Below, one piece after another: positions 6,334 to 23,561 of a stretch of DNA of 64,000 bases (positions are counted from its first letter, which is position 1; each line of letters begins with the position of its first letter). The stretch is from an uncultured Actinomycetes bacterium (GTDB lineage Bacteria; Actinomycetota; Thermoleophilia; Gaiellales; JAICJC01). The notes under the pieces were generated by a model. That model did no database searches. It was not told the origin of the DNA and saw only the letters and a program-made list of their open reading frames with translations. The stretch is from assembly GCA_963732075.1 (NCBI GenBank), contig CAVSYD010000005.1:46483-110482 (forward strand). The letters are read 5' to 3'. Made by a program: the position numbers and the translations under genes.

Positions 6334-6855
6334 TCACTGATTGGTCATCTGAACAGAGTCGAAAACCGCCGAACTACCGCTTGCCGAGAGGGTAGCACCC
6401 GTGTTGTTAGTGCAGACGATACCCCAGATTGCCGGGACGGCCCCTCCGAAGGCAGCCGCGATGGAATAGGGGCCTGCCGTATACGTGGTCGCATTGGCCA
6501 CGGCATTGATAATCCCGATCTGGATTAGGTTTGTAGGGCTCGTGAGTGTCTGGCCGGCATCCGTACCTGTTACTCCATCGGTGCAGGTCGAAGTCCCGCC
6601 CACGCAGCCGTAGGCGTATATGATAACGGTGCCCGTTGCGGACACGCCCGAGGCACCGGTCTTGGCAATGACATACACTTGCTCGTCCACATCCAGATTG
6701 GTGGTGTTGGCTACCGACGCCGATCCGCGACTGCTGTTGTTTGTCAGTGAAGCAAGCGTAATGGTGAGGGACGTATTGGTTGCTCGATAGCTGGGCTTGA
6801 TTGTGGTTGCCAGCAACATAGTTGGAATGAGAAGAAAGGCTAGTAGTTTTTTCAT
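6334..6855 (-). CDS. secreted beta-rich hypothetical protein (173 aa), last gene of the large minus-strand operon
   Basis: Signal-peptide-like N-terminus MKKLLAFLLIPTMLLA. Thr/Ser/Gly/Ala/Asn-rich. Starts 2 nt downstream of the GH16 stop. Confidence 0.6.
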   Translation of the reverse strand: MKKLLAFLLIPTMLLATTIKPSYRATNTSLTITLASLTNNSSRGSASVANTTNLDVDEQVYVIAKTGASGVSATGTVIIYAYGCVGGTSTCTDGVTGTDAGQTLTSPTNLIQIGIINAVANATTYTAGPYSIAAAFGGAVPAIWGIVCTNNTGATLSASGSSAVFDSVQMTNQ

Positions 6856-6857
6856 AA

Positions 6858-7826
6858 TTATTGAATCACCGGCCCACCCGTAGATACCGGACCACCGCGA
6901 ATGGAGGCTGCGCCAGAGCTTATATTGCCCCCGGCCAAGCGTGCCATGCGGGCCAGCGGTCGCAAGGCGAGGGCCGGCACGGGAGGCTGAAAGTCGTCAA
7001 AGAAGATCGTCGACCCCGCCAGATTTAGAACCTGCACGTAATCGGTATAGTGCGAAGCCGGGAGATTGCCATTCGTAGGCGTACCTCCCACGCCGCCAGT
7101 CTGGGTCAAAATGATCATAAACATTGGCAGGCTCATAGCCTGATTACAACTTGCCTGCTGGACGCCATCCATTGAAATTGAGATGGTAGTCGAAGTCCAG
7201 TGCATGCTGTAGGTGTGCCAGTTAGTGTCTACCGCGAATGTGGCGTCACAGACCCCAAACCCAGGATTGGCAATGTGGAACTGACACCAGCCACCAGAAT
7301 TGTAGCACTCCAGCATGTCTATTTCGGTGTAGTTGGCCGCACTTAGATTTGGGCAACCGTCAAAACCCGTATCTCCGGAGAACTTATTTGAATTCTGGCA
7401 ATTGGCCCCGAGTAGCCAGTGAGACGGCCATAGATTCGTGTTGGAGTTCGGATATTTTGTTCTGAAAATAACGGTTCCAAAGGTGAAGTTGAAGGTGTTC
7501 CACTGAATCTGTCCGGTTGTGTACGACCATGACGCTGGGGTGGTGTTGACGGTCCCGTCTGCGTTGAAATTACCGCAGGTCGAAGCTACAGCCGTAGTCG
7601 TGATGACCAGGTTCCCGTTTATCTGATTAACGCCAGAGGGCATATTACATTCGGTTTCATTCTGCCCGTACTCGCCGTGTCTGGAAACGACAGTCCACTG
7701 CTTGTTGAGCTGCCCCTGCGAGAGTGTCTGGCATACCGGCGACTTCCAACTGAGCGTGGCACCGCAGCCGTGCTGAGCAAGCGCGCATGCGGGCAAAAGG
7801 AAAAGTAAAGCAATGAGAGATTTCAC
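6858..7826 (-). CDS. secreted glycoside hydrolase family 16 (laminarinase / beta-glucanase-like)
   Basis: GTG start. Signal peptide KSLIALLFLLPACALAQ. GH16 catalytic motif YTEIDMLE (E-x-D-x-x-E) and WPSHWLLG. Confidence 0.85.
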   Translation of the reverse strand: MKSLIALLFLLPACALAQHGCGATLSWKSPVCQTLSQGQLNKQWTVVSRHGEYGQNETECNMPSGVNQINGNLVITTTAVASTCGNFNADGTVNTTPASWSYTTGQIQWNTFNFTFGTVIFRTKYPNSNTNLWPSHWLLGANCQNSNKFSGDTGFDGCPNLSAANYTEIDMLECYNSGGWCQFHIANPGFGVCDATFAVDTNWHTYSMHWTSTTISISMDGVQQASCNQAMSLPMFMIILTQTGGVGGTPTNGNLPASHYTDYVQVLNLAGSTIFFDDFQPPVPALALRPLARMARLAGGNISSGAASIRGGPVSTGGPVIQ

Positions 7827-7828
7827 AT

Positions 7829-8617
7829 CTAATCCTTAATCGCGATGGAGGCAGTTACGATATGGCTGGTGGGCGATTGATTTACGGTAGGTGCCCCGCC
7901 ATTGGTGGAATTTAGCAGATGCGCTTGAAAATCTCCGCCTGGATTAGAGTTGTCGTTTGTGTAAGCTGGCGTTCCGCTTGGAGCACTACAGGCACCCCCG
8001 CAAGACCCTATTGTGGCTATAAAGTCGTTTCCTCCGGTCAGTGTAAGGGCCGTTCCCACACAGGCAGTACAATTAACTGTCACCAGATTGGAACCAGACA
8101 CATCGAAGGATGCCGAGGTAGAACTTGAAAATTCCCAAAATTCAGCTAGTTGTTGATTGGCTCCAGCCGTTACTGTTAGCGTAGTCCCAACGGCTGTCAG
8201 GGATGCGCAATAGGCCATGCTCACCCATCCTGCGGTCGCATCCCCCGCCGATGTATTTGCCTGCACGGTCCACGATGTTGAACAGCCAGTAGCGCTGGTA
8301 ATGGTCTGGTTGGCACCAAATGCAGCGGCAATAATGCCGAAATGCCCAGCGGTCGGGTTGGTTATCGTGATAGCGCAAGTTGAACCTGAGCAGGTATTAA
8401 ATTTCGCCTGCGTGAAGGTAAAGGTCCCGCTACCGGCACCTTGAGCGTGGACCATTCCGTTGGCGTTAAACGGGGCTCCCTGCGGAACGAAGAAGCGCAA
8501 ATTGTGGTCTACGAATGGAGGAGTTTTAAGCGTTACATTGACAGTCTTATAGTGAAAGAAATCCGGGGTTGCTCCGAAGGAAGCTGTCACCGCAACTATC
8601 CCCAAGATCCATTTCAT
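7829..8617 (-). CDS. secreted Cys-containing beta-rich protein (262 aa), paralog-like to 19478..20239
   Basis: ATG at 8617 overlaps the upstream stop as ATGA. Signal peptide MKWILGIVAVTASFGA. Architecture resembles the 253-aa protein. Confidence 0.6.
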   Translation of the reverse strand: MKWILGIVAVTASFGATPDFFHYKTVNVTLKTPPFVDHNLRFFVPQGAPFNANGMVHAQGAGSGTFTFTQAKFNTCSGSTCAITITNPTAGHFGIIAAAFGANQTITSATGCSTSWTVQANTSAGDATAGWVSMAYCASLTAVGTTLTVTAGANQQLAEFWEFSSSTSASFDVSGSNLVTVNCTACVGTALTLTGGNDFIATIGSCGGACSAPSGTPAYTNDNSNPGGDFQAHLLNSTNGGAPTVNQSPTSHIVTASIAIKD

Positions 8618-11600
8618 CGGATTACCTTCCAATTGAGAGTGATCGACCCCGGATCTACTGTTCCAGAAGTCCAATTGCAACCTTCGAAGTTGACAGTGTC
8701 GGCGGTCGGATAAGCGTTAATGCTGAATCCTCCCGTTGAGGCCGGGACGTAGCCTGTCACGGCCTTGATGGAAGCGTTGGTGGTGAATAGGATAACGTCT
8801 GTTGAAAGCGTCCCTGTAGCTGTATCGGTAATGACCGTGGCACAGGCCCCGCTTGCCGTTGATGCGAAGTCTACGGCCTTGGCTCCGTGGGCAATTACCT
8901 GGGCGAGCGTAGCGTCCCCGGCGGCGGTCCCGGCGGTGATCCCGTGTATGCTGGTTTGATTGGCCAGCGCTACGGCGATGTTGGCGGTCGGGAGGACGCC
9001 GGTCACATCGGCGGTGAGGGAGACAGCAGAACTGGTAACAGTTTGCGTTGATCCGGCAAAGTGCGCTATTCCCGCGCCTGGGGAAGACGCATTGACTACC
9101 GTTCCTGGAAGATCCGCCAATGCGGCAGTCTGGTATCCAGGGGCCGCAGTGGACCCGGTGTTGTTCATCCAAAATTTATGCGCCGCTGCCGTGGCTAGTG
9201 TGGCTGTAACCACGCCAGTGGAGGCGCTGTTATTGATCAGCGTTCCATCGCCAGTGAATGACGTCACCGGTGCTGCCGTAGCCGCGAACGGCATGACGCC
9301 GCCAGAACGCTGTGTGAAGATGTTGGCCGTCGCCGCATTGGTAGAGAACGCAATCGTATAGTCCACGAATAACGCCGCCGTAAGATCGATGTTCGATGAA
9401 ACCGCGGTGTTCGTATCTACGAAGATCGAATCCGCCGTAGTGGTGAGAGCGCCAAGATCCACCGCTAAGGGACCATGAATCTCAAGGTTTCCAGTCGCGC
9501 CTGTCGTGTGCGTGTAGCCCATTACCGCAAGGTTCCAGTTGTTGTTGGTCACGGCCGCAATTGTAGCCGTGCTCACGATGGAGATGAGGGTCACGACCGT
9601 TCCCGATCCGCAACCGCTAATTGTGCAGAGCTTTATTTTAAGCGTGATGGTCGGAGTCTGCGCGGTCTGGGTCGTATAGACTCCAGCCCCATCGAATAGA
9701 AATGGCTGATTGGCACTGTTGAAATATCCAGCACCGAGGCTCAGCTCCATGAGTTGCTGGTCGGACGTGGTGTTGGTGTTGACCGTTGCAGGAGTGGTGC
9801 TGGTAACTGAGTTCCCCGCGCCCGCCCCCCCTGGACATGCCTGGAAGCTCGGATCTGAAGACGCACCGTTAGAGAGATAGCATTGTCCGCTCGTACCGGG
9901 GCTTGTGGCGACGATGGCGCTGGTGGTTTCTCCAACAAGTGGGCCGTGCGCAGTGAAGGTTCCGGCCCCGGTGCCACCGCTACCTACGGCCACAGCGGTA
10001 TTGAAAGTCTGAACGCCCGTGAATGTCTGACCGGCATCCGTCCTTGCGGTTGTAAAACTCGTGGTCGGGGTCGTCTCGGTAATTCCATCTGTCGATGCGA
10101 TCGTGAGGCTGTTTTGGACAGCAAATGTTTTAGCATTGGTGATCGAAAGCGTCCCGGTAGATGCTGTAATTGCCAATCCGTTAATACTAGTCTGGTTCGC
10201 CAAAGATGCAGGAAGTTGAGCGGTAGTAGCCGATCCGCTCAGATTCGAGAACGCCGGCTGCGCCTTGGATATCACGCCGGCCGCCGATACCGCAGTCAAG
10301 AAATTATTAGATGCTCCAGTGTCCGGCACAACCGTATTACTGACGGTCGAGGAATTATTGTCCATCGAGGAAAAGATGTGATTTGTGGAATCCCACCACC
10401 ATCGTCCATCGGAAGCTGGCGGAGTGCCGGGCTTGGAAATTTCCGGTCCCATTGCGCCCGCCACGGTAGAAGAGCATCCGGTTCCGTTGACAGTTGAACC
10501 GTCCGCTCCCACCTCAAATTCCTGCGTAGTGGTTGCGCTCAGCGTAGGATCAACCGTGCAAGTATTAGTCGCGGATGCACCATAGGAAACAGTCCTTCCG
10601 CCCGTACCGTCTTGCGTCCATGCGATCGAGAATTTGGCCCCAGCGGTTTTGTTCGTAAAAGTCACCGATGTTACGTTGGCAGTCAAGGCACCAGGCTCAA
10701 CGCGCACAGGCGACTTAACGGAAACATCGGCAAGGGAAAACGTGGGGGTAGCGGAGAAGGCTGGATTGGTAGCAGTTGAACCCGTGAATACCGATGTAGC
10801 TCCGCCGCCAGAGTACTGCGGGATGTTCAATGTCCCTCCCGAATAGGTGGCCGCGCCGCTCGATCCCGTGGTAGTAAGGGTGAATAGCGCCTGAGTGTTC
10901 AACATCGTCGCAATCTGCGCAGCGGTGAGGGCCAATGGTGCAGCCGGGGAGCCCGTATTGTTCCCCATGATGGAATTCGCGGCTAGGTTGGCCATCTTGG
11001 AAAGTGATATTGCCCCAGCACCGATAGTCAACGCAGGGAAGGTAGTGGTCGCGTCCCCGGTGAACACACCGGAGTTAACCATCTTGGCGGCGGTGATCGC
11101 GCCCGCGCCGATTGTCAGCGCCGGGAACGTTGTCGTTGCGTCGCCGGTGAACACTCCAGCGTTGATTAGCTTGGCCGCCGTCACGTTGGCATTTGTGATG
11201 TCGGCGGTGACGATCAAGCCGCCAGCGGTTGCTCCCGTGGTGGTTGTGTTGTGTAGGACGCCTGTGGTGAACCCGCCTGGAACCTTGAATGCGGAGGTGG
11301 CCATCGCGGAGAGGTCTAGGACGGCGGACGCCCCGCCGGCGAGCGTATGAGATGCCATGGTGATGACCCAATCCACAGAGGACGCGCACGCGCTGGAGCC
11401 ATTGTTAATCACGATCTGACCAGCAGACCCTCCAACCGAGCATCCAGAACCAGCAGAGAACGCGGTCCACGTATTCGTCGCCGTGCAACCGTAATAGGTG
11501 CCTCCATCGATCAGTATCGGCGTCTGTCCTGGTGTACATGTGGCGGTTGTATGGTCGCCAGAAAGAACCGGTCGGAAGCTAGCCGAGAATCCTTGCGGGA

Positions 11601-11682
11601 ATGGATTAACCACGGGCGCTATCTGAGCGCGAAGGCACAGCGGTATCAGTAGGATCAGCAACGCGCGAAGCATGCGGGTCAT
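8614..11682 (-). CDS. 1022-aa secreted tail-fibre-like protein
   Basis: Signal peptide MTRMLRALLILLIPLCLRAQ. Long Thr/Gly/Ser/Ala-rich beta-type sequence. Internal 29-aa tandem duplication. Its C-terminal 88-aa module is shared with the 617-aa protein. Confidence 0.7.
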   Translation of the reverse strand: MTRMLRALLILLIPLCLRAQIAPVVNPFPQGFSASFRPVLSGDHTTATCTPGQTPILIDGGTYYGCTATNTWTAFSAGSGCSVGGSAGQIVINNGSSACASSVDWVITMASHTLAGGASAVLDLSAMATSAFKVPGGFTTGVLHNTTTTGATAGGLIVTADITNANVTAAKLINAGVFTGDATTTFPALTIGAGAITAAKMVNSGVFTGDATTTFPALTIGAGAISLSKMANLAANSIMGNNTGSPAAPLALTAAQIATMLNTQALFTLTTTGSSGAATYSGGTLNIPQYSGGGATSVFTGSTATNPAFSATPTFSLADVSVKSPVRVEPGALTANVTSVTFTNKTAGAKFSIAWTQDGTGGRTVSYGASATNTCTVDPTLSATTTQEFEVGADGSTVNGTGCSSTVAGAMGPEISKPGTPPASDGRWWWDSTNHIFSSMDNNSSTVSNTVVPDTGASNNFLTAVSAAGVISKAQPAFSNLSGSATTAQLPASLANQTSINGLAITASTGTLSITNAKTFAVQNSLTIASTDGITETTPTTSFTTARTDAGQTFTGVQTFNTAVAVGSGGTGAGTFTAHGPLVGETTSAIVATSPGTSGQCYLSNGASSDPSFQACPGGAGAGNSVTSTTPATVNTNTTSDQQLMELSLGAGYFNSANQPFLFDGAGVYTTQTAQTPTITLKIKLCTISGCGSGTVVTLISIVSTATIAAVTNNNWNLAVMGYTHTTGATGNLEIHGPLAVDLGALTTTADSIFVDTNTAVSSNIDLTAALFVDYTIAFSTNAATANIFTQRSGGVMPFAATAAPVTSFTGDGTLINNSASTGVVTATLATAAAHKFWMNNTGSTAAPGYQTAALADLPGTVVNASSPGAGIAHFAGSTQTVTSSAVSLTADVTGVLPTANIAVALANQTSIHGITAGTAAGDATLAQVIAHGAKAVDFASTASGACATVITDTATGTLSTDVILFTTNASIKAVTGYVPASTGGFSINAYPTADTVNFEGCNWTSGTVDPGSITLNWKVIR
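11000..11171 (-). repeat. in-frame tandem duplication (2 x about 29 aa) inside the 1022-aa gene
   Basis: NAGVFTGDATTTFPALTIGAGAITAAKM followed by NSGVFTGDATTTFPALTIGAGAISLSKM. The DNA copies differ mostly at synonymous sites. Coordinates are approximate. Confidence 0.7.
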
Positions 11683-11746: not shown

Positions 11747-11794
11747 CTTAGTTGTGGCTGGCTAGACGGTCTTAGTTGTGGCTGGCTAGACGTT
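11747..11794. repeat. 24-bp tandem direct duplication with a 22-nt perfect core
   Basis: cttagttgtggctggctagacg occurs at 11747..11768 and again at 11771..11792. The upstream copy (in gene direction) encodes the last six codons plus the stop of gene 11772..12053. Confidence 0.9.
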
Positions 11795-12053
11795 TGCCGT
11801 TTTCCAGGTCACGGAGACGTTCTTCATGGTCCTCTATGCGCTCTTCGCGAATGGATGAATTGCTGATCGCTACCGTCAGCGCCTGCGTAGCCGCTGCATT
11901 CACCTGCAATTGAACCAGCAGTTTATCGAAGTCTTTTTCGAGCCGTTCCACGCGATACCTCAAAACGTAGGCGGTTCCAATTGCGGCTGCCAGACTCAAC
12001 AGCAGAGCCAAGGCCGAAACCAGGACGCCAGTCGCCGCAAGGTTCATTTGCAC
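11772..12053 (-). CDS. N-terminally membrane-anchored coiled-coil protein (93 aa)
   Basis: TM segment ATGVLVSALALLLSLAAAIGTAYVL, then a heptad-like charged region (ERLEKDFDKLLVQLQ...EERLRDLEN). Confidence 0.5.
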   Translation of the reverse strand: MQMNLAATGVLVSALALLLSLAAAIGTAYVLRYRVERLEKDFDKLLVQLQVNAAATQALTVAISNSSIREERIEDHEERLRDLENGKRLASHN

Positions 12054-12082
12054 TTATAGATCCATGATTGAAGGCGTTGCAC

Positions 12083-12515: not shown

Positions 12516-12758
12516 CTACGGAGTCGTGCTCCCCATCGCATCGAGCGCGGTGGTAGCCGCATCGAGCTTGGTCACTTCCGTAGCCGCCTGCGCCGCCAGG
12601 TCCTTCGCGGTTTGCAGGTCAGTGGCGGATGCGATCTGCGCCAGCAGCGCGGTAATGCGCGCCTGGATCGCGGTGATGTCCGCTGAAATCTTGTCTGAGT
12701 CGGTATCGATCTGGGCCAGCGCGGATTTGGTTGCCGCGAGGTCGTCGGTGAGAGCCAT
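12516..12758 (-). CDS. Ala/Thr/Asp-rich coiled-coil protein (80 aa)
   Basis: ORF track. AAAAAGGAGAAT lies upstream of the ATG. Helical low-complexity composition. Confidence 0.5.
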   Translation of the reverse strand: MALTDDLAATKSALAQIDTDSDKISADITAIQARITALLAQIASATDLQTAKDLAAQAATEVTKLDAATTALDAMGSTTP

Positions 12759-12760
12759 GT

Positions 12761-12934
12761 CTAATTCTCCTTTTTTACGGTCAGTTGGGTGAGCTGTACT
12801 ACAGATTTGTGAAGCTTCGCGGCAGTAGATTGAGCTTGCAATGCGAGCGCGTGCAGATCACTGGCCAGAACGGCATACTGGTCGGCCGCTTTCCCCCGAA
12901 GGGTGATCTCGATGTCCGGTGAGCAGTCTAGCAT
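12761..12934 (-). CDS. 57-aa hypothetical protein (below the ORF-track cutoff)
   Basis: My translation: MLDCSPDIEITLRGKAADQYAVLASDLHALALQAQSTAAKLHKSVVQLTQLTVKKEN. Its stop lies 2 nt before the next ATG. Confidence 0.35.
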   Translation of the reverse strand: MLDCSPDIEITLRGKAADQYAVLASDLHALALQAQSTAAKLHKSVVQLTQLTVKKEN

Positions 12935-12980
12935 TAGATTCGCCTAAAAGAGTCTACCATGACCGAATGACGGCACGGTG

Positions 12981-13181
12981 TCACCTATGGTAAGGATAAA
13001 ACACCGGCCCCGAGCCGAACATCCCCGCGAGCAAGTAGATTAACCAGATGGCAACGAAGACGATCACGATAACCCTGATAATCCGCGCAATCGCTGCATC
13101 CATTGGTATTTGAGTGATGCCCCATAGGATCACGCCGACGATCAGTAGCGTGACTAGGATCTGAACTAGCGGGAATGGCAT
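12981..13181 (-). CDS. two-TM small membrane protein (66 aa), resembles the Thivi_2564-type family
   Basis: MPFPLVQILVTLLIVGVILWGITQIPMDAAIARIIRVIVIVFVAIWLIYLL. The pattern recalls a widespread small membrane protein family; this is from memory, not a search. Confidence 0.55.
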   Translation of the reverse strand: MPFPLVQILVTLLIVGVILWGITQIPMDAAIARIIRVIVIVFVAIWLIYLLAGMFGSGPVFYPYHR

Positions 13182-13227
13182 AGCTGCACCTCAAGGATTA
13201 TATAGCATGTGTGGGGCCTAACGACTT

Positions 13228-13265
13228 GGGCGCTACCCCTTTCGAGATAGCGCCCTTTTGGTTTT
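13228..13265 (+). terminator. rho-independent terminator-like hairpin oriented on the plus strand
   Basis: GGGCGCTA (13228..13235), 12-nt loop, TAGCGCCC (13248..13255), then TTTTGGTTTT. The T-tract is present only in the plus orientation. Confidence 0.45.
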
Positions 13266-13446
13266 GGCTGGAGCACTTGCCGCCGATTTCACCGGAACAC
13301 GTCATAAGCTTTACAACGTTTCACCGGATGCGCGTTCCCATCCGGATCACTTCGCAATCCCATCGGCTTTATTGCATCGGTCTTACGGTCTCACACCCCA
13401 GCCCTCTTTGTTGGGTTGGGAATCCTTTACGAAAGAACATTATATA

Positions 13447-13689
13447 CTACGCTCCCACCGTTCCGTAGTACTTATTCACGGCCTCCGCCACCACCTCGCA
13501 AAGCGACTGAGCCAATGCAACCGGCACAGCCACCTTGCTATTGATCTGCTGCAAGGATGCCAGCGCCGGCGCTATGTCGGCGTACAGCGCGGCGCCAGTG
13601 AGCGTCTTGGATGCGAGCATCGCACGAATTGAGCCGATTAGGCCGAGTATCTCCGTGACGAGCGCGAAGTAGGCGAAGAAGGTGCTCAC
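13447..13689 (-). CDS. hypothetical protein (80 aa)
   Basis: ORF track. 4-nt overlap with the upstream gene. Hydrophobic N-terminus. Confidence 0.5.
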   Translation of the reverse strand: MSTFFAYFALVTEILGLIGSIRAMLASKTLTGAALYADIAPALASLQQINSKVAVPVALAQSLCEVVAEAVNKYYGTVGA

Positions 13690-14093
13690 GGGATGATGAC
13701 CGTAACCCCGCGCCCGGTGCCGACTTCGACCGTGTAGAGCGTGCTATACGCAGCCGGGACACCTTGAACGAGTCCCAATTGCTCATAGGAGTAGTTCCAG
13801 AACTCCGAAGGTCCTGCGTTGGCCTTGAGTGTTTCATCCAGATCGGCGGGGTACGGCGGGCTGTTCGGTGCTTGCTGGTTAGCAATCTCCGCGTACCATC
13901 CGAGGATCTGTTGCTGAGTGAAGGTGAACTGGTTGTAGGGAATGCCGACAACCACAGTTCCGGCGAGTAAATCGCTGGAATAGCCGGACAGAGCGCCGTT
14001 GTAGATGGTAACCACGGTCTGCCTTTGCTGGTAGGAGAGCACGGGGTTGATTTTTGCCGCGAAAGGCAATTTTGGGTCGAGCTGAAATGACAT
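13686..14093 (-). CDS. hypothetical protein (135 aa)
   Basis: ORF track. ATAAGGAGAAAATCA lies upstream of the ATG. No family recognised. Confidence 0.55.
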   Translation of the reverse strand: MSFQLDPKLPFAAKINPVLSYQQRQTVVTIYNGALSGYSSDLLAGTVVVGIPYNQFTFTQQQILGWYAEIANQQAPNSPPYPADLDETLKANAGPSEFWNYSYEQLGLVQGVPAAYSTLYTVEVGTGRGVTVIIP

Positions 14094-15913: not shown

Positions 15914-18900
15914 CGCGTAGGAGTTGTCCGCGTGGGCGCAGTGGTTGGTCTGTCGACCGAGCGCCCAGCGCCAGACCCAGCGGACCCGAGCGCGGTAAGC
16001 CAGTTCGCCTTATTGGTCGAGTCCGGATCGTACAGCGCGGCCTGCGTGAAGAAGTTCAGTAGGTAGGCTTGGTCGCGCGTATCCGAAGGGTTCGTATTAT
16101 TGCAAGCACCGTGCCATGTGTTATAGAAACCCACACCGGTAGATGCCCACGGGCGAAGGTCGGACCATTGCGTAATAGCTTGGCTGTTTAGAACGGTATT
16201 CGTTAGTCCTCCCATGTGGCCTCCACCCGATAACAGCGGAGCGGAGCAACCAAGAAAGCCTGATGCTATCTGAGGGTCTCGGATCCAGTAATTGCCAATT
16301 GCATTGGCCTGGAGAAGCCACGCATTGATACCAGAGCGATAGTATGCCGCACGAAGCGCAAAATCCGTTCCATAGAATTGCGGCCCAAACGCCGAGCACG
16401 CTCCAATGTCGTTTTTGTAAGAGAATGCTTGGCCGGTTTGCGCTTGCAGTCCCGACCCAAACGGCCCGCTGATATCGAAGATTGCAATCGCGAAGGCCAG
16501 GGTATTCGACTCGCAACCTTGCGCGTCTTGCAGGAATCGGTATGTTCCTGCGAGGCCCATTCCATAGATGGGTGCCGCCGCATCCGTGAAGTCCGTAGCC
16601 AGATATTGCGTCCCCGTGATTTTGTAGGACAGGCCGGAGGCGTCGTCCGCATCGGAAGGAAAGGGATGGTCCACCGTTAGGCTCGTGGTCGAGTTCACCG
16701 CGGTGATGAGCCTCCAAAAGGTGAACGTATTCACTACCGGGGTTCCACTTAAGGCTCCAAAGCTGGTGGAATCAACGGGGATTGAGAACTTATTGGCCGC
16801 AGTCACGGTAACGGTAAAGGTTCCGTTTATAGCGGTCCAAGAGCCTGTGCCTCCCGAGATTTTAATTACGTCTCCGCTAATGTAGCTATGATTTGTTACC
16901 GTCGTCAAGACTGCGGGATTGGCGTTTGTGGCAGAAGAGATTGTAAGACCGTTAGCGGTGGTCGTGCCGGAAACAACAATCATGCTGCCGATCGTACCGG
17001 TGCCGTTCTGGTTGTACTTTATGGTTCCCGCGTTGGCGGTTGGGTCTAGCGTCCAATTCGTTCCAGAGCCCGTTATTGTGGTCGATGAATGCGTTACTGA
17101 AACAGTTCCAGTGGTGTAAATGACCGGGCCGGGAGGGCCTGGAGCCCCGGCGGGGCAAACCGGGCGCACCAGATCGGTAGCGAATAGCGTGCCGGTTCCC
17201 TTGACGGCCATGTCCGCCACAACCGTGCCCGTGCTCCAGGAATTGGCCTGCCCCGTTACTGCCGTTGCGACAGGAGGCGTGGGCGAGAGGCCGCGCCCGT
17301 CATAGCCAATCGTCAGGGTCGCGTCCCCCGTGGTCGCCGTAGTCCCTGTAATGCGGATTATCTCGCCGCCATAGCCGCCGATGACGGCCCAGCACGGCAA
17401 AGTGGTCAGACAGGTTAGATTCTGCGATGTGTGAATTGCGATGCTGGTCGTGGTTGCGTTGATGCCGCCATTCAGTGTCGCTCCCGCCGGTGATCCCGTC
17501 GTACCAAATCCGCGGCCAAACATGTTGTAGTCAATTGACCCAGACGCGCGTGTGTTCCATGCTGCCGCCTCCGCTGGATAGGGGTTATTGTCGTCCTGCA
17601 AGATGGCCGCTTCTATATTGCGCTCGTCTTCGTAGCACCAGGGATTGTACCCGAGGGCAATCATGGGCCCATAGATTTGCGTGGTGTTTGGATCGGTCTG
17701 GATGACCACGCCGTTAGCGTCAATCCCAATCGCACCGATGGTAAGGTCCGCGCAGTTCTCCCCGTTCATGTCAGTCAGGCAAAGACGCGCCGTGTATTCT
17801 CCGGCAATCACCCCGGTTACTGTTGTCGTGGCGCTGGTGGAACTCGTTATGGTAGGACTATTCGGACCTGCGATGATAGACCATTTGTAGGTAAGCCCGC
17901 CTGTCCCGGTGCTAGAGGTGCCCACAAGCTGATTCACGTGGTTCCCGCTCGTGTCCCAAGGCGTGCCGATCTGCGGATTGTTGACCACCCAGCATGGCGC
18001 GGTGGTAGTGGTGCGCAGGACAGGCGTAGCGGTAGCGGTGAGAGGCTTGAACGCGAACCCTTCCGCCCCGTATCCTTCCGAGTTCATCGCGCACTGCACC
18101 TGAGCCGTGGTGCTCGCTGCAATTTGATCCACGACCATCAAGAAGGGCCTGATGGTGTCTTGAAAACGAAGATTCCACCCCGCCGCCGGAATAGTAGGAG
18201 CGCCGCCGCAGAATCCTAAGTTGAGGTCGCCCACTACCGTCGTGTATGGACCGGATATCATGTCGCCTAAGCCATCCGGGCCGCCGAAGCCTGCGGAATT
18301 AGAGAAGCCAGGTTCCTGCACCCCGATGCCGCTATAGGCCACGCCCAAAATAAACTGATTCTTGATGCCGGGAAGCGGCGCTCCCGCTTGCGTTGGTATG
18401 GTAAACGAAATTGTATCTGGACTCGCCGTGGTTGGGACTTCCGCGGTAAAGATTGCTCCTGGGGTATTCGAGAAGTCCCCGAGCGGCCCGGAGACATTGG
18501 CATACATTTGCTTCCACTTAAGCCCCAGCGTGTCAGAAATAATGTATTTTGGGAGAACGCTGATGGGCCAGAGGTTTACAAACGTGTTTATCAGGTGGCT
18601 CGCAGCGGGGCCACACGAGATGGGAGCGGTGCCTCCGATGAAAGGCATGTTAGGGGTGGCATTGGGATAGTTCCCAGCCGCAAAACAAGTGCCCGGCAGC
18701 CCTCGCTGATCCACGGTGAAGTGCTGCGTACCGGGTGCGGTTCCGGTTATCGCAGTTACGCGTAGTTTCTCCGTGCCTGTATTTCCTACGTTGAAATCGG
18801 AAAGGTACACGTAGAACGGAACCGGCGGCCAATCGCAATGCACTCCTAGGCCACAGGGTATTGTGTCAACGTCGAACCCGGTAGCCCCGGAGGTGATGTT

Positions 18901-19434
18901 GGCATGCAGACCACCCTGAGTTAGCTGCGGGCCGGTAGTCACTACTTCAATGAAGGCACGCCCTTTCACGAAGCTCGGGAAGGTTACCTGCCCGGTGTTT
19001 TGGAAAACCCATGCCCCCTGAGCACCCTGCTCGCAAAATATATTACCAGCCACAAGAGAATGGGAACAGTTAGTGGTCGTGTGCGCGATGGTGATGTTGA
19101 TGATCGGAGACGATCCCATATTGCCCATCGAATCCATTGAGGTCACCTGGAACGTATGAGCCCCCACGCCCAGCGAACTTGCGTAAAGCGTGCCTTGCCA
19201 GACTTGGTTGGACAGCGTGCAGAATCCCGTCATGATGCAGGAGCTTCCATCGAAGAGCACGTCCGTGGACACGATGGAACCAGTGGTAGTGGTGGCCGTG
19301 CCTGTCATCTGATACAGGTTGTATATTGTGTCGCTCGGCTGCGGGTTGGCTATCGTGACGGTAACCGCCGCGCTCGCAGTAGATGATAGAATGATGGCCA
19401 TGAAAACCATCAAGAGAGTCTGGCGCAATTTCAT
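15904..19434 (-). CDS. 1176-aa secreted multidomain protein (Ig-like N-terminus, PKD-like segment, small beta-barrel module, helical C-terminal region)
   Basis: Signal peptide MKLRQTLLMVFMAIILSSTASA. PKD-like segment GGLTYKWSIIAGPN...YTARLCLTDMNGE. Module ATNANPAVLTT...ISGGTGSWTAINGTFTV is shared with the 200-aa protein. Confidence 0.7.
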   Translation of the reverse strand: MKLRQTLLMVFMAIILSSTASAAVTVTIANPQPSDTIYNLYQMTGTATTTTGSIVSTDVLFDGSSCIMTGFCTLSNQVWQGTLYASSLGVGAHTFQVTSMDSMGNMGSSPIINITIAHTTTNCSHSLVAGNIFCEQGAQGAWVFQNTGQVTFPSFVKGRAFIEVVTTGPQLTQGGLHANITSGATGFDVDTIPCGLGVHCDWPPVPFYVYLSDFNVGNTGTEKLRVTAITGTAPGTQHFTVDQRGLPGTCFAAGNYPNATPNMPFIGGTAPISCGPAASHLINTFVNLWPISVLPKYIISDTLGLKWKQMYANVSGPLGDFSNTPGAIFTAEVPTTASPDTISFTIPTQAGAPLPGIKNQFILGVAYSGIGVQEPGFSNSAGFGGPDGLGDMISGPYTTVVGDLNLGFCGGAPTIPAAGWNLRFQDTIRPFLMVVDQIAASTTAQVQCAMNSEGYGAEGFAFKPLTATATPVLRTTTTAPCWVVNNPQIGTPWDTSGNHVNQLVGTSSTGTGGLTYKWSIIAGPNSPTITSSTSATTTVTGVIAGEYTARLCLTDMNGENCADLTIGAIGIDANGVVIQTDPNTTQIYGPMIALGYNPWCYEDERNIEAAILQDDNNPYPAEAAAWNTRASGSIDYNMFGRGFGTTGSPAGATLNGGINATTTSIAIHTSQNLTCLTTLPCWAVIGGYGGEIIRITGTTATTGDATLTIGYDGRGLSPTPPVATAVTGQANSWSTGTVVADMAVKGTGTLFATDLVRPVCPAGAPGPPGPVIYTTGTVSVTHSSTTITGSGTNWTLDPTANAGTIKYNQNGTGTIGSMIVVSGTTTANGLTISSATNANPAVLTTVTNHSYISGDVIKISGGTGSWTAINGTFTVTVTAANKFSIPVDSTSFGALSGTPVVNTFTFWRLITAVNSTTSLTVDHPFPSDADDASGLSYKITGTQYLATDFTDAAAPIYGMGLAGTYRFLQDAQGCESNTLAFAIAIFDISGPFGSGLQAQTGQAFSYKNDIGACSAFGPQFYGTDFALRAAYYRSGINAWLLQANAIGNYWIRDPQIASGFLGCSAPLLSGGGHMGGLTNTVLNSQAITQWSDLRPWASTGVGFYNTWHGACNNTNPSDTRDQAYLLNFFTQAALYDPDSTNKANWLTALGSAGSGAGRSVDRPTTAPTRTTPTRWG

Positions 19435-19477: not shown

Positions 19478-20239
19478 CTATAGCCCCTTTAGCGCTAGGT
19501 TCCAGCCCACAATACCGGACCATCCGGACCCTCCATTGCTGACCGACCATTGAGGATTTGTGGCACCCGCGGCCGTGATGATCTTATAGCCTATCGCTCC
19601 ATCCATCGTGGCCGCTGCACAAGTACTTATCGCCAAGGTATAGCTTGAATTTATGGCATTGGTTCCGTCTGCTGCGCAATAAGCAGCTATTCCGGAAACA
19701 ACAATATCATTGGCAAACCCGGTGGTGATGCTGCCAGGCTGAAAGGTTAAAATTCCAGCCCCGGAAGATGTCACCGAACTTATGATGCTTCCGTCCAGCG
19801 CTCCACTACCGCTGACCGTAATACCAGCAATCCAGCAGGCTGCCATGCAATTACTAAAAGAGACTGTTACGGTGGCTCCTGCTGCTGGCGTCAATGTATA
19901 ACAAAGCTGACCTGAAGAAACGGATCCTGCGCCTCCGCTTGCAATCCCGACACAAGTAAATGAGTTGCTTGGCGTGCTGGTGATAGCAAGGGGGTCGCTG
20001 GTATCACAGTGTTGAGAGAAACATCCGGATACCACTATCAAAGCGGTGGACCCGGTGTTGGTAATGGCCGCCGTGGTTCCCGTGGCCGCTCCTGTGGTTT
20101 GCTGGGCATCGATGAAGGTCGGTGGGGTAGGCGTGGTGCTGCATGATGCCCCATTTCCGCACCCGCCTCCGCCGAGTCCCGGCATGAACTGCGCGTGGAG
20201 CGCTAAGCTGACGAGAAATAAACCAATGAGTGTTTTCAT
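19478..20239 (-). CDS. secreted Cys-containing beta-rich protein (253 aa), paralog-like to 7829..8617
   Basis: ATG at 20239 overlaps the upstream stop as ATGA. Signal peptide MKTLIGLFLVSLALHAQ. Confidence 0.6.
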   Translation of the reverse strand: MKTLIGLFLVSLALHAQFMPGLGGGGCGNGASCSTTPTPPTFIDAQQTTGAATGTTAAITNTGSTALIVVSGCFSQHCDTSDPLAITSTPSNSFTCVGIASGGAGSVSSGQLCYTLTPAAGATVTVSFSNCMAACWIAGITVSGSGALDGSIISSVTSSGAGILTFQPGSITTGFANDIVVSGIAAYCAADGTNAINSSYTLAISTCAAATMDGAIGYKIITAAGATNPQWSVSNGGSGWSGIVGWNLALKGL

Positions 20240-20796
20240 CTTAAAATCTGAGCGTTCAGCGTTACAGCCCCAGGAGTGATAGAGGAGGTTGTATTGTTGC
20301 AAACTGAAACGTTGATCGTGTCAGCAGTGGGGTAGACCTTGAGTGTCAGCATTCCGCCTGTGGCGGGGCTGTACCCCGTCACTGCGTCCGTATTGGCATT
20401 GAACGAAGTGTTGATGGTGTCCGTTGTCAGCGTGCCGGTAGCGCTCAGCGTTTCTACGCGGCAGGTGGCGCTTGTTAGAATGCTCGTCGACAGGGCCTTG
20501 GTGCCGGTAAAGAAACCGCCCCGCATCACGATAACGTTGACCGTGACGGCCCCTGGAGTGATAGACAATCCCGTGTTATTGCAAACCGAGAAGTTTACAG
20601 TGTCTGCCGTGGGATACGCTTTGACTACAAGGATTCCCCCGGTAGTGGGGGCATACCCGGTAACCGCATCGGTATTCGCGTTGAAATTAGCGAGAATGTT
20701 ATCTGTGGTGAGAGTGCCTGTCGCGGCCAGAGTTTCAACCCGGCATGTCGCTGAGGAAAGAGCGGAGGTGGAAAGCGCCTTGGTGCCGCCGAATAT
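20236..20796 (-). repeat. two tandem copies of a ~92-aa C-terminal module; a third copy ends the 1022-aa gene at about 8617..8880
   Basis: GTKALSTS..SATCRVETL.ATGTLTTD......FNANTDAVTGY.P.TGG.L..K.YPTADT.N.SVCNNT...ITPGAVT.N. The 1022-aa gene ends ...TGTLSTDVILFTTNASIKAVTGYVPASTGGFSINAYPTADTVNFEGCNWTSGTVDPGSITLNWKVIR. Confidence 0.8.
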
Positions 20797-22089
20797 CTTG
20801 GTTGGAAGCCCCCCGCCGCCACCGCTAGCGCACGCCGACCCCACCGACGTACATAATGTTCCGCCGGTGCCGGAGAGCGCTGTAACAGCCGTGCCAGCTA
20901 TCTTGAAGCTATTCCCAGTGCCAGCCGTGTCGTAGGTTTTGTTGGTCAGGGTGTCAGTGGTGGCCTTGGCGATTAACGTGTCCGTGGCTGCCGGAATGGT
21001 GATGGTTCCAGATGCGGCGGCTGTCGCCTGAACTACAGTTCCCCCGCTTGCGGAACCTGGAAAGCCAGCCCCAGGAGGACAATCAAAGCACCACATTGGC
21101 GCTAAGGCTTGAAGCGTTGAGGATGAGGAAGCATAGAAAGATTGAAAATTGGTCTTCCCTGCTGGCGTTGGGAATATAGTGAAGTCTCCAAGGCCACTCA
21201 TGCCCGCGCATGTGAAGGTGCGACCTGGCGTACCGTCATTGGTTAACTTGATTGTGAGAAGCTGTCCAGTCACGAACCCCGATATGGTCCCGCACGTAAT
21301 GTTCGCCCCAAGCGTGGCAGTGATGGTCAGAACCGTGCCAGAGCCACCAGAGATGGGTGGCGCGGTGGTTATGGTGCCGAGAGGCGTAAGTGCGGCTCCA
21401 CCTCCGCTACTGCATGGAGCGCTGGAGGCATCCACGTGAACACAATCCCCTGATGATCCAGTAACTACCGCTGGAGTGCCTGAAGTGGCTTTGATTACGC
21501 CCGTTAATGATCCCAATCCACCGCATGTCCCGCTCGTCCCATTCACCTTAACGCAATCCGTGGGCGAACCCGTCACCGCGGACGGAACCCCCGCGGTCGC
21601 ATAAATCACTCCGGTCAACAGCCCAAGCCCAGCGCACGGAGCCCATACGACAGTGCTGCCAGTATACTGAATGCAATATTGAGCCATCGCCCCAGAAGTG
21701 TCTAACTGCGACAACTGAATGATCGCCGGATTTGGACCAGCCGCACAAGAGAATCCGCATGGATTTGGAGTTGTCGGGATGGTCCATGTCATCGAATAGG
21801 CCGGCGCTCCGGTCAAATGAAAGTTCGCCGTATAGAAAGATGGCTGTGGCGTCGCGGTCGTATTCGCGTATAGTTGGACCGAGAAGGTGCCCGTGGAGGG
21901 GTCTAGGTTCACTGTCGTAGGGGCATTGCTGACAACGTGCCCGCCCGGTGCTGTGAATGGGCGATTGGGCGTCACCACGATGTAGCCGGTGGCGTGGACT
22001 CCTGCCGAAATCTCAACCGTCCACGAAACGGTGTTGAGCTGCGCAAATGCAGCCCCCGTTAATCCGACCAGTAAGGCTAATAGTTTCAT
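20236..22089 (-). CDS. 617-aa secreted tail-fibre-like protein with a duplicated C-terminal module
   Basis: ATG at 22089 overlaps the upstream stop as ATGA. Signal peptide MKLLALLVGLTGAAFAQ. Fibre-like repeats LTGVIYATAGVPSAVTGSPTDCV and LTGVIKATSGTPAVVTGSSGDCV. Confidence 0.7.
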   Translation of the reverse strand: MKLLALLVGLTGAAFAQLNTVSWTVEISAGVHATGYIVVTPNRPFTAPGGHVVSNAPTTVNLDPSTGTFSVQLYANTTATPQPSFYTANFHLTGAPAYSMTWTIPTTPNPCGFSCAAGPNPAIIQLSQLDTSGAMAQYCIQYTGSTVVWAPCAGLGLLTGVIYATAGVPSAVTGSPTDCVKVNGTSGTCGGLGSLTGVIKATSGTPAVVTGSSGDCVHVDASSAPCSSGGGAALTPLGTITTAPPISGGSGTVLTITATLGANITCGTISGFVTGQLLTIKLTNDGTPGRTFTCAGMSGLGDFTIFPTPAGKTNFQSFYASSSSTLQALAPMWCFDCPPGAGFPGSASGGTVVQATAAASGTITIPAATDTLIAKATTDTLTNKTYDTAGTGNSFKIAGTAVTALSGTGGTLCTSVGSACASGGGGGLPTKIFGGTKALSTSALSSATCRVETLAATGTLTTDNILANFNANTDAVTGYAPTTGGILVVKAYPTADTVNFSVCNNTGLSITPGAVTVNVIVMRGGFFTGTKALSTSILTSATCRVETLSATGTLTTDTINTSFNANTDAVTGYSPATGGMLTLKVYPTADTINVSVCNNTTSSITPGAVTLNAQILR

Positions 22090-22688
22090 TGATAGCTCGA
22101 CGGCGCCGCGCACGGGAATTTCATAGACGTTTGGCCGCCCACGAGATTAGACAGCGTCCCCGACGATGGCACAGGCACGGTCCACGCAATGATGGTAGGG
22201 TTTCCGCCGGCATCCGATACGATCGGGCTCACAGACCATACCGAAGCGGTGGCCTTTGGCGCGCGCGTAGACATTACGATGCTTTGCGCACCCCATGCAC
22301 CGAACCCGCTGGTGTCCACATTGATGGAGAGCGCGTTCGCCGACGTCGGCGTTACAAGATGGAAGCCGTTGAGTGTCGCCCATCCGCCCGTCGCCCCTGA
22401 GATGAAGACGAGAGCCACCTGCGTTACCCCGGTCGCAAAATATAACCCGTGCGCAGTCGCCGTCATGATGCCTGGGTTGGCGTTGCTGACCGTGGTAACA
22501 GCAATAGTAGACGTGCTCTGTGACGACAACGCCTTGCACGTGTAATCCGCTACGCCCGCCGTGTAGTGGATAATCGTCGTCACCGCGTCTTGTGGAGGGA
22601 GCGAAGAGATGATGACGTTCGATTGCGCCCACGCGAGGGCCGGAGTCAGCAGTAACAGTAGTCGCATTCTCGTAAGTCGCATGAGCAT
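22086..22688 (-). CDS. 200-aa secreted protein with a small beta-barrel module
   Basis: Signal peptide MRLLLLLTPALAWAQ. Module VSNANPGIMTATAHGL...ISGATGGWATLNGFHLVT..SANALSINVDTSGFGAWG. Confidence 0.6.
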   Translation of the reverse strand: MLMRLTRMRLLLLLTPALAWAQSNVIISSLPPQDAVTTIIHYTAGVADYTCKALSSQSTSTIAVTTVSNANPGIMTATAHGLYFATGVTQVALVFISGATGGWATLNGFHLVTPTSANALSINVDTSGFGAWGAQSIVMSTRAPKATASVWSVSPIVSDAGGNPTIIAWTVPVPSSGTLSNLVGGQTSMKFPCAAPSSYQ

Positions 22689-22691
22689 AGT

Positions 22692-23561
22692 TTACCTTTC
22701 AGGTGGACCGAGCGGAGGAGGGCCATCGGATGACGTCGCTCCCATCTTCTTCTTTATCAGGTCGTTCAATTCCTGGACCCTCGTGCCGTGAAACTGATCA
22801 TTGATGCGGCTGTTCTTGGCGTACGATGTCCCGAGCTCCGCATCCGCCTTCTTTACGAAATCCATGTAGGACTGCCCCGGCTTCACTTCGGAGATGTTGT
22901 TCTTCACCGCATAGCTTGCGAGCGCCTCATCTTTTGCGGTAGCCGCGGCCCTGCGCTTATCGATGATGGCTTGCTCTAGTTCGGAGAGGTTGGCATTGCC
23001 TGTGGGCTTGGGGGTTGTATCTGCCGTATCCGTGTACATAAGTGGTTTGCCGTCCTCCTGAAGCATAACTGGACGTCCGTTGGCTTGGGGGAATTCCGGC
23101 GGGGGCGGACCCGGTGGCGTTGCGGCCCGCTTGTCCACGGTTGCCTTTGCTCTGTTCAGTGCTTGGGTAGCGGGATTGGGTTGTTCCCCCGGTACGGGGA
23201 CCGTGCGCCCAGATGGAAGCACACGCGATGGTGGCTGGATCGGCGTGAGGTCGGGGATATGATTCCCATAAGCCTGCCCCTGCGTCGGGGTGCGCGGCGT
23301 CGGCGTGGCTTGCACGGGGGGCTTGAGTGGCCCCGGAGTGCGGCCGGACGGAAGCGTGCCGGGTATAGGGCTCAGGTCCGGAATCTGATTCTGATAAGCA
23401 CTCCCCTGAATGACCGGTGCCCGAGGCGTAGTCGGTGCCTTCGGTGGTATCGCTACCGGTCCCGGCTTACGTCCCGTTATCGTTTCCGTTGCTGGTATCG
23501 GACTTAGGTCCGGGATTGGCTGCGGATCTACTGGGGGCACGTCTATACCACCCTTTGGCAT
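22692..23561 (-). CDS. Pro-rich repeat protein with a helical C-terminal domain; 5' end uncertain
   Basis: ATG at 23561 (MPKGGIDVPP...). An alternative GTG at 23609 lies at the compositional junction. Three IPDL(S/T)PI-containing repeats. Confidence 0.5.
   Translation of the reverse strand: MPKGGIDVPPVDPQPIPDLSPIPATETITGRKPGPVAIPPKAPTTPRAPVIQGSAYQNQIPDLSPIPGTLPSGRTPGPLKPPVQATPTPRTPTQGQAYGNHIPDLTPIQPPSRVLPSGRTVPVPGEQPNPATQALNRAKATVDKRAATPPGPPPPEFPQANGRPVMLQEDGKPLMYTDTADTTPKPTGNANLSELEQAIIDKRRAAATAKDEALASYAVKNNISEVKPGQSYMDFVKKADAELGTSYAKNSRINDQFHGTRVQELNDLIKKKMGATSSDGPPPLGPPER
23163..23516 (-). repeat. three tandem Pro-rich repeats of about 32-44 aa
   Basis: IPDLSPIPATETITGRKPGP..., IPDLSPIPGTLPSGRTPGP..., IPDLTPIQPPSRVLPSGRTVPVP... 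Confidence 0.75.

Follow-up and report, generated by a model that had tools for sequence, protein, structure and literature searches.

The 64,000-nt stretch of contig CAVSYD010000005.1 analysed here, which we call the window, carries between 6,334 and 23,561 on its minus strand an operon in which every large product begins with a predicted signal peptide. We suggest, tentatively, that this operon is a late phage module for binding the host surface and degrading its glycans, and that its exported proteins act free, outside the cytoplasm. Judged from its genes, it would be a host-recognition and depolymerase module routed through the Sec pathway, which, as far as we could find, has so far been undescribed. 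The copy in the window is damaged, being truncated, probably chimeric and interrupted by one frameshift. The phenomenon itself is real and recurrent. The genes of the operon, and the small divergent gene beside it, are listed below with their open reading frames (ORFs); a hyphen marks the predicted cleavage site of each signal peptide.

5950..6303, plus strand: small secreted protein of 117 amino acids (aa), divergent; signal peptide ..LALCA-QI; FN3-like by eye only, without a Pfam match
6334..6855, minus strand: 173-aa signal-peptide protein rich in Thr, Gly, Ser and Ala; signal peptide MKKLLAFLLIPTMLLA-TT; no match in Pfam, PHROGs or NCBIfam
6858..7826, minus strand: 322-aa signal-peptide enzyme resembling GH16 endo-beta-glucanases, with the motif EIDMLE; signal peptide ..ACALA-QH
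7829..8617, minus strand: 262-aa signal-peptide protein with 8 Cys; signal peptide ..TASFG-AT; it begins with the ATG at 8617, in an ATGA that also holds the stop of the 1022-aa gene
8614..11682, minus strand: 1022-aa signal-peptide fibre-like protein; signal peptide ..LCLRA-QI
11772..12053, minus strand: 93-aa candidate Rz-like i-spanin, with a coiled coil and, at its N-terminus, a transmembrane segment
12083..12367, minus strand: 94-aa multi-transmembrane protein, holin-like from its hydrophobic segments only
12516..13689, minus strand: four small ORFs of 80, 57, 66 and 80 aa, two of them transmembrane, two Ala-rich and helical-looking
13686..14602, minus strand: two proteins of 135 and 132 aa without signal peptides
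14645..19434, minus strand: signal-peptide protein of ~1,590 aa, split into ORFs of 1176 and 422 aa; signal peptide ..STASA-AV
19478..20239, minus strand: 253-aa signal-peptide protein with 10 Cys (ATG at 20239); signal peptide ..LALHA-QF
20236..22089, minus strand: 617-aa signal-peptide fibre-like protein (ATG at 22089) with 18 Cys, two LTGVI..VTGS..DCV repeats and two tandem tip modules; signal peptide ..GAAFA-QL
22086..22688, minus strand: 200-aa signal-peptide protein with a barrel module; signal peptide ..ALAWA-QS
22692..23561, minus strand: 289-aa Pro-rich protein without a signal peptide, the first gene of the phage block

Eight operon products show the tripartite layout of a signal peptide, with a positively charged n-region, then a hydrophobic core and then a small-x-small cleavage site. 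The signal peptides were called with a heuristic detector of our own, based on the charge of the n-region, a hydrophobic core of 9 residues and the -3/-1 rule. It was positive for all nine proteins concerned, namely the eight of the operon, for which signal peptides had been claimed in the first-pass annotation, and the 117-aa protein, vs one of the 51 remaining ORFs of 80 aa or more in the phage block that forms the left part of the window. The lone positive control is a small multi-transmembrane protein. In the flank of high guanine-plus-cytosine (GC) content the detector was positive in 4 of 104 ORFs. Gln occupies the +1 position of the predicted site in six of the nine (five operon products and the 117-aa protein), and these are the same six that had been noted to end their signal peptide in A-Q. 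In the AlphaFold2 model of the 1022-aa protein residues 2-17 form a helix, with a predicted local distance difference test score (pLDDT) of about 80. Lys, Arg, Asp and Glu together account for 4-9% of the residues of the signal-peptide proteins vs 20-31% in the cytoplasmic phage proteins of the block, and the Cys counts of the mature proteins (10, 8, 12, 10, 18, 2 and 4) are mostly even; so many cysteines would suit disulfide bonding outside the cytoplasm. The low charge and the mostly even Cys counts thus give indirect support to the predicted export. We consider that the nine products are very probably exported proteins.

The largest product had been taken for a separate protein of 1176 aa. 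One G is missing from a G run (CCC on the plus strand, within 15957-15972), which splits the giant protein into the 1176-aa and 422-aa ORFs. In all homologues (P0002-P0005 and about 190 family representatives) the 422-aa part is the C-terminus of the same protein, and the closest giant homologue is continuous across the frameshift site (...GSGAGALGRQTN...). On this comparison the two ORFs are one gene of ~1,590 codons with a 1-nt deletion, which is either a long-read homopolymer error or a true pseudogenising mutation. With the two ORFs merged, all large operon products carry signal peptides. The giant protein consists of an Ig-like N-terminus, a PKD domain (503-560), an E1_FCCH-like barrel (830-901) and a large Cys-rich C-terminal domain, and it looks more like a secreted multidomain enzyme or binder than like a fibre.

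Its C-terminal ~400 aa (window 14,645-15,913) belong to an uncharacterised family with at least 194 representatives at 50% identity (homologues P0127-P0274), recognised by the motifs QQPFM, CEP, YGAxWG and KWxGFFFGMG..WPA.RL. The family domain is always C-terminal, in proteins of 900-2,170 aa that nearly always start with a signal peptide (at least 69 of 92 full-length members). Full-length close relatives of the giant protein are few, and all of them retain the signal peptide (P0003-P0005). A profile of the C-terminal domain built from 30 sequences matched nothing in the PDB or Pfam. The AlphaFold2 model of the C-terminal ~670 aa, made with 6 sequences, had a mean pLDDT of 32 and was not used for a fold search. 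No relatives were found in a scan of genome contigs with the giant protein, nor among cultured phages in a tblastn search with the 422-aa part. The 253-aa protein is the conserved partner of the giant one: a signal-peptide gene of ~250 aa lies directly upstream of the giant gene in the related viral loci L007, L009 and L010, and by tblastn the 253-aa protein is homologous to the genes of 251 aa in L007 and 250 aa in L010. A homologue search with the 253-aa protein returned a single match.

The signal-peptide proteins share modules, in line with the first-pass annotation. By BLASTP the tip module of the 1022-aa protein (933-1022) matches both tandem copies in the 617-aa protein (428-523, E 5e-16; 529-617, E 6e-13), and the barrel module of the 1176-aa ORF (830-901) matches residues 62-138 of the 200-aa protein (E 9e-9). 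The same comparison found no N-terminal docking domain common to the window's signal-peptide proteins, whose post-signal residues differ. The 322-aa protein was rightly assigned to GH16: it matches Pfam PF00722 (3.7e-5, 23.7 bits vs a cutoff of 22), its residues 101-258 match PDB 4bq1 (E 1.2e-7), the catalytic E-x-D-x-x-E is present as EIDMLE, and there is a partial match to NCBIfam EglC. Most operon products have no matches in Pfam, PHROGs or NCBIfam.

The 1022-aa protein is composed of a Cys-hairpin motif, a repeat region, a beta-sandwich (300-480), a beta domain (650-790) and a lectin-like tip (925-1022). AlphaFold2, run with 50 homologues, models the beta-sandwiches at 300-480 and in the tip confidently and 650-790 moderately, and the presumed shaft regions have low confidence. 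A Foldseek search with this model gave only weak matches in the PDB (E 0.16-0.4, probability 0.7-0.9), to an H-type lectin and to C-terminal domains of the LKA1, phi297 and Solidus tailspikes, and 15 matches with E<=1e-3 in BFVD, including annotated tail fibres, an Mtd_N protein and "phage tail repeat like" proteins. A phmmer search of the PDB found no match for the 1022-, 1176-, 617- and 422-aa proteins, and a tblastn search of cultured phages found one marginal match for the 1022-aa protein. The label fibre-like, first applied to the operon's products at large, is therefore justified for the 1022-aa protein by its BFVD matches and for the 617-aa protein by the shared modules, and suits the giant protein less well. 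We also note a post-signal motif (..LPATCTVGQ.AF.T.ATAGQN.Y.CTATNTW..) at residues ~48-72 of the 1022-aa protein (window 11,460-11,520) and in many of its homologues. Modelled as a beta-hairpin with two Cys, the motif may be a disulfide-locked, foldon-like trimerisation element.

The same modules are found with signal peptides in many homologous proteins. The 1022-aa protein has 143 modular homologues. Among 125 retrieved homologues (five of the 1176-aa protein and 120 modular ones of the 1022-aa protein) 89 have a signal peptide. Those without one begin like classical fibres and carry Mtd_N, Peptidase_S74 or DUF5907 domains; collagen domains also occur among the modular homologues beside these three. 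Modules of the 1022-aa protein are carried by six IMG/VR viral contigs. In the related loci, L010 encodes a large terminase subunit (PHROG 38, 2e-36) and a portal of the SU10 type, and in L002 three signal-peptide genes lie directly downstream of a gene with an SU10 adaptor-like match (E 9.7e-6; 26.6 bits, just below the Pfam cutoff of 27). A DNA polymerase A gene is present in L009, where three large proteins without signal peptides (551, 681 and 1012 aa) are encoded upstream of the cluster. L011 and L096 (109-kb contig, dCMP deaminase) contain eight or nine consecutive signal-peptide genes for proteins of up to 1,842 aa, one of which has a beta-helix of the Pel9A type. In L012 signal peptides occur, among the genes called, only on fibre-like, GDSL-esterase and pectate-lyase genes; beta-helix, pectate-lyase and GDSL are thus the enzyme domains seen in relatives. 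Lysis or lysis-like genes adjoin the signal-peptide clusters in the window, in L007, in L009 and in the cultured phage Tunturi 2.

L007, a 34.7-kb Logan contig (SRR29078233), is the closest relative of the giant gene and its partner. It has an integrase gene, and its cluster stands beside it at the end of the late operon. For the late genes in its first 10,000 nt, upstream of the signal-peptide cluster, Pfam has no recorded entry. A PHROG scan of ten of these genes detected neither head nor tail proteins, and a 603-aa protein has a lysin-like domain. The same region encodes several small membrane proteins, a very basic protein of 305 aa and three consecutive proteins of ~155 aa. L007 could represent a temperate virus that is unclassified and perhaps lacks a tail.

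The first isolates of Acidobacteriota phages were reported in 2025, and two of them, Tunturi 1 and Tunturi 2, which infect the acidobacterium Tunturiibacter, are podoviruses under electron microscopy, with ordinary tailed particles (PMC11924767). In Tunturi 2 six consecutive genes, gp12-gp17, follow the "tail protein" gene gp11, and all six products start with signal peptides (for example MKKFIQLALLFILPAAASA-QT). Gp12 has 1,190 aa and gp17 1,280 aa. Gp14 is pectate-lyase-like, and gp17 has beta-helix and CHB_HEX_C domains. The four large proteins (gp12, gp13, gp14 and gp17) contain 10-34 Cys; the large terminase subunit, portal, capsid and adaptor-like tail module of the same phage contain 0-8 Cys and lack signal peptides. 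This tail module includes the adaptor-like gp31, the 1307-aa gp32 and the lytic tail protein gp37. The endolysin region comes after the signal-peptide cluster. The same cluster is present in Tunturi 1 (L098 10371-23028; in Tunturi 2, L093 9802-22744), and gp17 is its sole clearly diverged protein between the two phages (89.6% identity, 96-aa length difference). Neither genome has an annotated integrase or recombinase. GenBank labels gp13 of Tunturi 1/2 as tail fiber, gp14 as tail spike or pectin lyase, and gp17 as virion structural protein. Term searches of the main text of the Tunturi paper found no mention of signal peptides or mass spectrometry; the paper describes Tunturiibacter as producing extracellular polysaccharide-like substances (PMC11924767).

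The signal-peptide cluster is carried by genuine phages, at least some of which are tailed and apparently lytic. The first-pass annotation had offered, as one explanation, a secreted adhesin and glycan-degrading island built from domesticated fibre modules; the secreted, glycan-directed part comes closest to the evidence, and the domestication falls away, as the genes belong to genuine viruses (the terminase- and portal-bearing contigs and Tunturi 1 and 2). It had also held that finding the proteins in ordinary tailed virions would speak against its view, and of this one half is seen: phages with ordinary tailed virions encode them. We considered whether signal-peptide fibres are a trait of all Acidobacteriota phages and rejected this, because Tunturi 3 (a podovirus) and Tunturi 4 (a siphovirus) have fibre genes without signal peptides. 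The trait thus marks particular phage lineages and not the host phylum.

The position after the predicted cleavage site shows a further regularity. In a survey of the window (5950-22688), Tunturi_2 (L093 9802-22744) and the homologues P0001-P0274, the hydrophobic core was followed by Gln, as the earliest strongly polar residue, in 58 of 85 and in 48 of 73 signal-peptide-like N-termini, usually as [AGSC]-Q. To judge from these N-termini, a pattern like the Q-rule is present in phages of Acidobacteriota. The Q-rule has been described as exclusive to Bacteroidetes (PMC10653852). Neither a C-terminal sorting domain of the type IX secretion system (Por_Secre_tail) nor any other C-terminal-domain match was found in Pfam and NCBIfam. 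The shared tip module was considered as such a C-terminal sorting signal and rejected, since it is duplicated inside the 617-aa protein and has no Pfam match.

The operon comprises 18 co-directional ORFs, that is 17 genes, read from 23,561 down to 6,334. About twenty tightly packed genes had been described; the minus-strand ORFs were placed correctly, and 8 of the 17 junctions are indeed overlaps of 4 nt or gaps of 2-3 nt, the rest being gaps of 29-265 nt plus the frameshift overlap. A scan for promoters and terminators showed no excess over shuffled sequences. In mid-operon, between 11772 and 13689, lie genes for small proteins of membrane and coiled-coil type. Among these is the 93-aa protein, which matches PHROG 739 (Rz-like spanin) at 3.3e-6 and has the Rz topology by eye; no o-spanin with a lipobox (lipoprotein signal) and no endolysin were found near it. 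A stretch of 265 nt in the same part (13,182-13,446) has no convincing ORF; it could serve as an internal promoter or in regulation, or it could hold a gene that a further assembly error has disrupted. The 289-aa protein (22,692-23,561) contains three repeats of ~45 aa with the sequence IPDL(S/T)PI and has no family match.

The reading that we favour, with the reserve stated at the outset, can be put as a sequence of steps. Step 1: The operon would supply glycan binders (the 1022- and 617-aa proteins), the GH16 enzyme, the ~1,590-aa protein with its 253-aa partner, and small beta-rich proteins, from genes interleaved with those for holin- and spanin-like proteins. Step 2: Late in infection the large products would be translocated unfolded by Sec to the periplasm, where their cysteines would form disulfides. 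Step 3: As free proteins, not preassembled into virions, they would bind and cut the extracellular polysaccharide or envelope glycans of the host, likewise late in infection. Progeny phages may thereby escape from the matrix and avoid being trapped on debris or on already infected cells. We favour free proteins because of the enzyme content of the clusters, their adjacency to lysis genes, the lack of a common docking domain and the tail module of Tunturi 2, which is free of signal peptides.

Several points weigh against this reading. Export, cleavage and localisation are predictions from sequence, with signal peptides called by the home-made detector only. The fibre-like 1022- and 617-aa proteins have no recognisable catalytic domain. 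Spending 17 kb on non-virion proteins is costly to a phage. No sorting signal that would take the proteins across the outer membrane was found in Pfam and NCBIfam. The block is truncated, which hides the window's own phage type. Finally, the signal-peptide genes lie in or beside the normal genome position of tail-fibre genes, and no large receptor-binding candidate without a signal peptide was recognised in the readable parts of L007 and L009.

These last two points belong equally to the closest alternative, in which the signal-peptide proteins are true receptor-binding fibres or tailspikes, exported by Sec, folded and trimerised in the periplasm, and joined to fibre-less particles at or after lysis. 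Such a two-compartment route would characterise a lineage of Acidobacteriota phages including Tunturi 1 and 2, with pyroglutamate N-termini and disulfides. We find it doubtful, and less probable than the action of free exported proteins. The genes occupy or adjoin the usual place of fibres: they follow the adaptor-like gene in L002 and the large late proteins without signal peptides in L009, and in L007 they close the late operon, next to the integrase. In the sequenced parts of the last two loci no large alternative receptor-binding protein was recognised. The proteins contain modules of true tail fibres and a lectin- or tailspike-like tip, and the GenBank labels of gp13, gp14 and gp17 (fibre, spike and virion structural protein) agree with a place in the virion; gp17 is also the most divergent of the compared structural-region proteins between Tunturi 1 and 2. 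On the other side, the separate gp31/gp32/gp37 tail module of Tunturi 2 could supply receptor binding, the giant family is built like secreted multidomain enzymes (with Ig-like or LamG-like N-termini), and the proteins of one phage have no conserved docking domain after the signal peptide. The many Cys would toughen particles in acid soil, but assembly after lysis would suffer from dilution, and we found no precedent for it among tailed phages in the literature.

Far less probable than either is that the proteins are cargo of lysogenic conversion or superinfection exclusion, exported to the lysogen's envelope as adhesins or as factors that mask or destroy receptors. Classical exported phage proteins are of this kind (Lom and Bor of lambda, Llp of T5). 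Signal-peptide proteins of the Q-rule type in Porphyromonas gingivalis prophages have been interpreted in this way (PMC10367356), L007 has an integrase, and the divergent 117-aa secreted protein resembles a moron. The genes are not separate moron units, however, and stand in late operons tied to structural and lysis genes; their extent, 17 kb in the window and over 20 kb in L011 and L096, far exceeds that of known exclusion genes. A purely lysogenic role is rejected, as Tunturi 1 and 2 have the cluster and no annotated integrase.

The setting of the operon in the window bears on a further alternative. The window is divided in two parts, with these features at and left of the operon:

1064..5792: Gp3-like protein, DnaQ-type exonuclease (PHROG 192, 8e-40), YqaJ/RecE exonuclease and T5orf172/GIY-YIG nuclease, in the left part of the phage block
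23570..23600: abrupt rise from 56% to 70% GC at the border between the phage block and the Gaiellales chromosome

From 1 to ~23,570 the window has 56.4% GC and in the remainder 70.4%, and the step of 14 points falls inside ~30 bp at ~23,570-23,600. The junction lies within a high-GC ORF of 126 aa (23543-23923, minus strand), the first phage gene (289 aa) has no upstream phage sequence and no room for a promoter, and neither a tRNA nor a recognisable integrase gene was found near it. The right end of the block is an abrupt break in composition and not a natural operon start. The flank belongs to Gaiellales (Actinomycetota), its TypA being 96% identical to that of a Gaiellales metagenome-assembled genome; many of the related genomes from this comparison come from one series of large-contig assemblies. 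The related viral loci and the Tunturi phages have 51-59% GC, matching the block. Signal peptides of the block have a Lys-rich n-region, a Leu/Ile/Phe core and A-Q, a style shared with Tunturi phage proteins, unlike the Ala/Arg-rich ones of the flank. One homologue of the 1022-aa protein carries the label Acidobacteriota, and the candidate Rz-like spanin of the block implies a diderm host. Positions 1-23,570 are, on our reading, a truncated piece of a tailed-phage genome from a diderm soil host, most likely a member of Acidobacteriota. We do not take the block for a prophage of the adjoining Gaiellales DNA, given its composition and the lack of a tRNA and of a recognisable integrase gene at the junction. 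Because of the GC step, the lack of tRNA and integrase, the position of the junction inside an ORF, the signs of a different host and the homopolymer frameshift, we consider the join to be most probably an assembly chimera on the 676-kb contig. The flank itself encodes, at 45,780-49,655 on the plus strand, a secreted protein of 1,291 aa with about 13 tandem repeats of ~95 aa, which look Ig- or FN3-like (..GGS..W....V.VTASGSTD.GSG..GYQYRTST.GG.TWS..).

That the block is instead a genuine integrated island, and its proteins the surface proteins secreted by that Gaiellales bacterium, we regard as improbable. The block does share one contig with Gaiellales genes (TypA at 96%), and identical proteins are on record from this single 676-kb contig. 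All the features of the junction just given, from the GC step to the phage gene lacking upstream sequence, argue otherwise, as do the Tunturi-like style of the signal peptides, the diderm host implied by the spanin, and the 51-59% GC of all relatives; a homopolymer error of a long-read assembly could account for the 1-nt frameshift, which falls in a G run, and such assemblies can be chimeric.

Scans with Pfam and PHROGs confirmed that the window has no capsid, portal or terminase gene, and no matches to sheath, tube or baseplate proteins were found in the window or in the related loci. The head genes are unseen because the phage block is truncated at the junction. The novel secreted particle system proposed in the first-pass annotation thus has no sheath, tube or baseplate to stand on, in the window or in its relatives. 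About as improbable as the island is the structural module of a non-tailed virus that matures at the membrane and bears the signal-peptide proteins as spikes, a membrane-assembled virus having also been proposed at first: the window has no Caudoviricetes hallmark genes, and L007 has 10 kb of late genes without Pfam entries, ten genes without PHROG head or tail matches, and small membrane proteins, but the absence of hallmarks says little in a window truncated at an artificial-looking junction, a 17-kb module and recombination and exonuclease genes are typical of tailed double-stranded DNA phages, L010 has terminase and portal, lysis genes are present, and Tunturi 1 and 2 are podoviruses under the microscope, Tunturi 2 with ordinary tailed particles.

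The free, exported module that we prefer can be compared with several known systems. Fibres and tailspikes of Caudoviricetes (LKA1 gp49 and phi297 gp61 in their C-terminal domains, the Mtd type, SU10-type podoviruses) are alike in their modular, beta-rich Thr/Gly/Ser/Ala build with repeat shafts and a lectin-like tip, in their place in a late operon near adaptor, portal and terminase genes (here in relatives), and in the beta-helix, pectate-lyase and esterase domains of cluster neighbours. They differ in that here a Sec signal peptide replaces the virion-docking domain, Cys is high and charge low, and up to nine genes stand in a row. Signal peptides are not expected on virion proteins of tailed phages, and one survey counted their lack in favour of a phage origin of tail-fibre-type proteins. 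Phage lysis proteins exported by Sec are well known, such as Lys44 of the Oenococcus phage fOg44, the signal-arrest-release endolysins P1 Lyz and phage 21 R, and the spanins Rz/Rz1. These too are late proteins sent to the periplasm before lysis, and holin-, spanin- and endolysin-like genes are interspersed among the present clusters; the products described here, in contrast, have 170-1,600 aa, are fibre- or glycanase-like and not muralytic, and are many per genome. In Inoviridae, g3p and g8p are virion or receptor-binding proteins with signal peptides, assembled at the membrane. Inoviridae differ in having small single-stranded DNA genomes, lysis-free extrusion and no terminase or portal, whereas relatives of the present block have both, together with lysis genes.

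Proteins of unknown function in P. gingivalis prophages, with signal peptides for signal peptidase I that expose Gln at +1, have been read as phage use of host secretion (Matrishin et al. 2023, PMC10367356). They are a handful, belong to Bacteroidota and, in the parts of that report concerned with them, are not described as fibre-like or as a late structural operon. About 5% of the carbohydrate-active enzymes (CAZymes) of soil prophages carry signal peptides (PMC13507307). The GH16 enzyme with its signal peptide resembles these auxiliary metabolic genes of soil phages, but it is a co-transcribed member of an exported fibre-like set, unlike a metabolic add-on. In the literature we found no description of late clusters of tail-fibre- or tailspike-like proteins that all bear signal peptides.

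The findings have consequences beyond this contig. Labels such as "tail fiber" and "virion structural protein", given to such genes by annotation pipelines, may mislead. The recurrent Gln at +1 questions the exclusivity of the Q-rule to Bacteroidetes, and glycan binders and enzymes stabilised by disulfides could be drawn from these proteins. As Tunturi 1 and 2 and their host are cultured, both outcomes for the exported proteins are testable now. If they are virion-bound, receptor-binding proteins would reach the particle by an extracytoplasmic route. If they are exported and free, as we suggest, these phages would spend 20-40% of their genome on proteins that bind or degrade the matrix, which would change how the release and dispersal of phages among polysaccharide-rich soil bacteria are seen.

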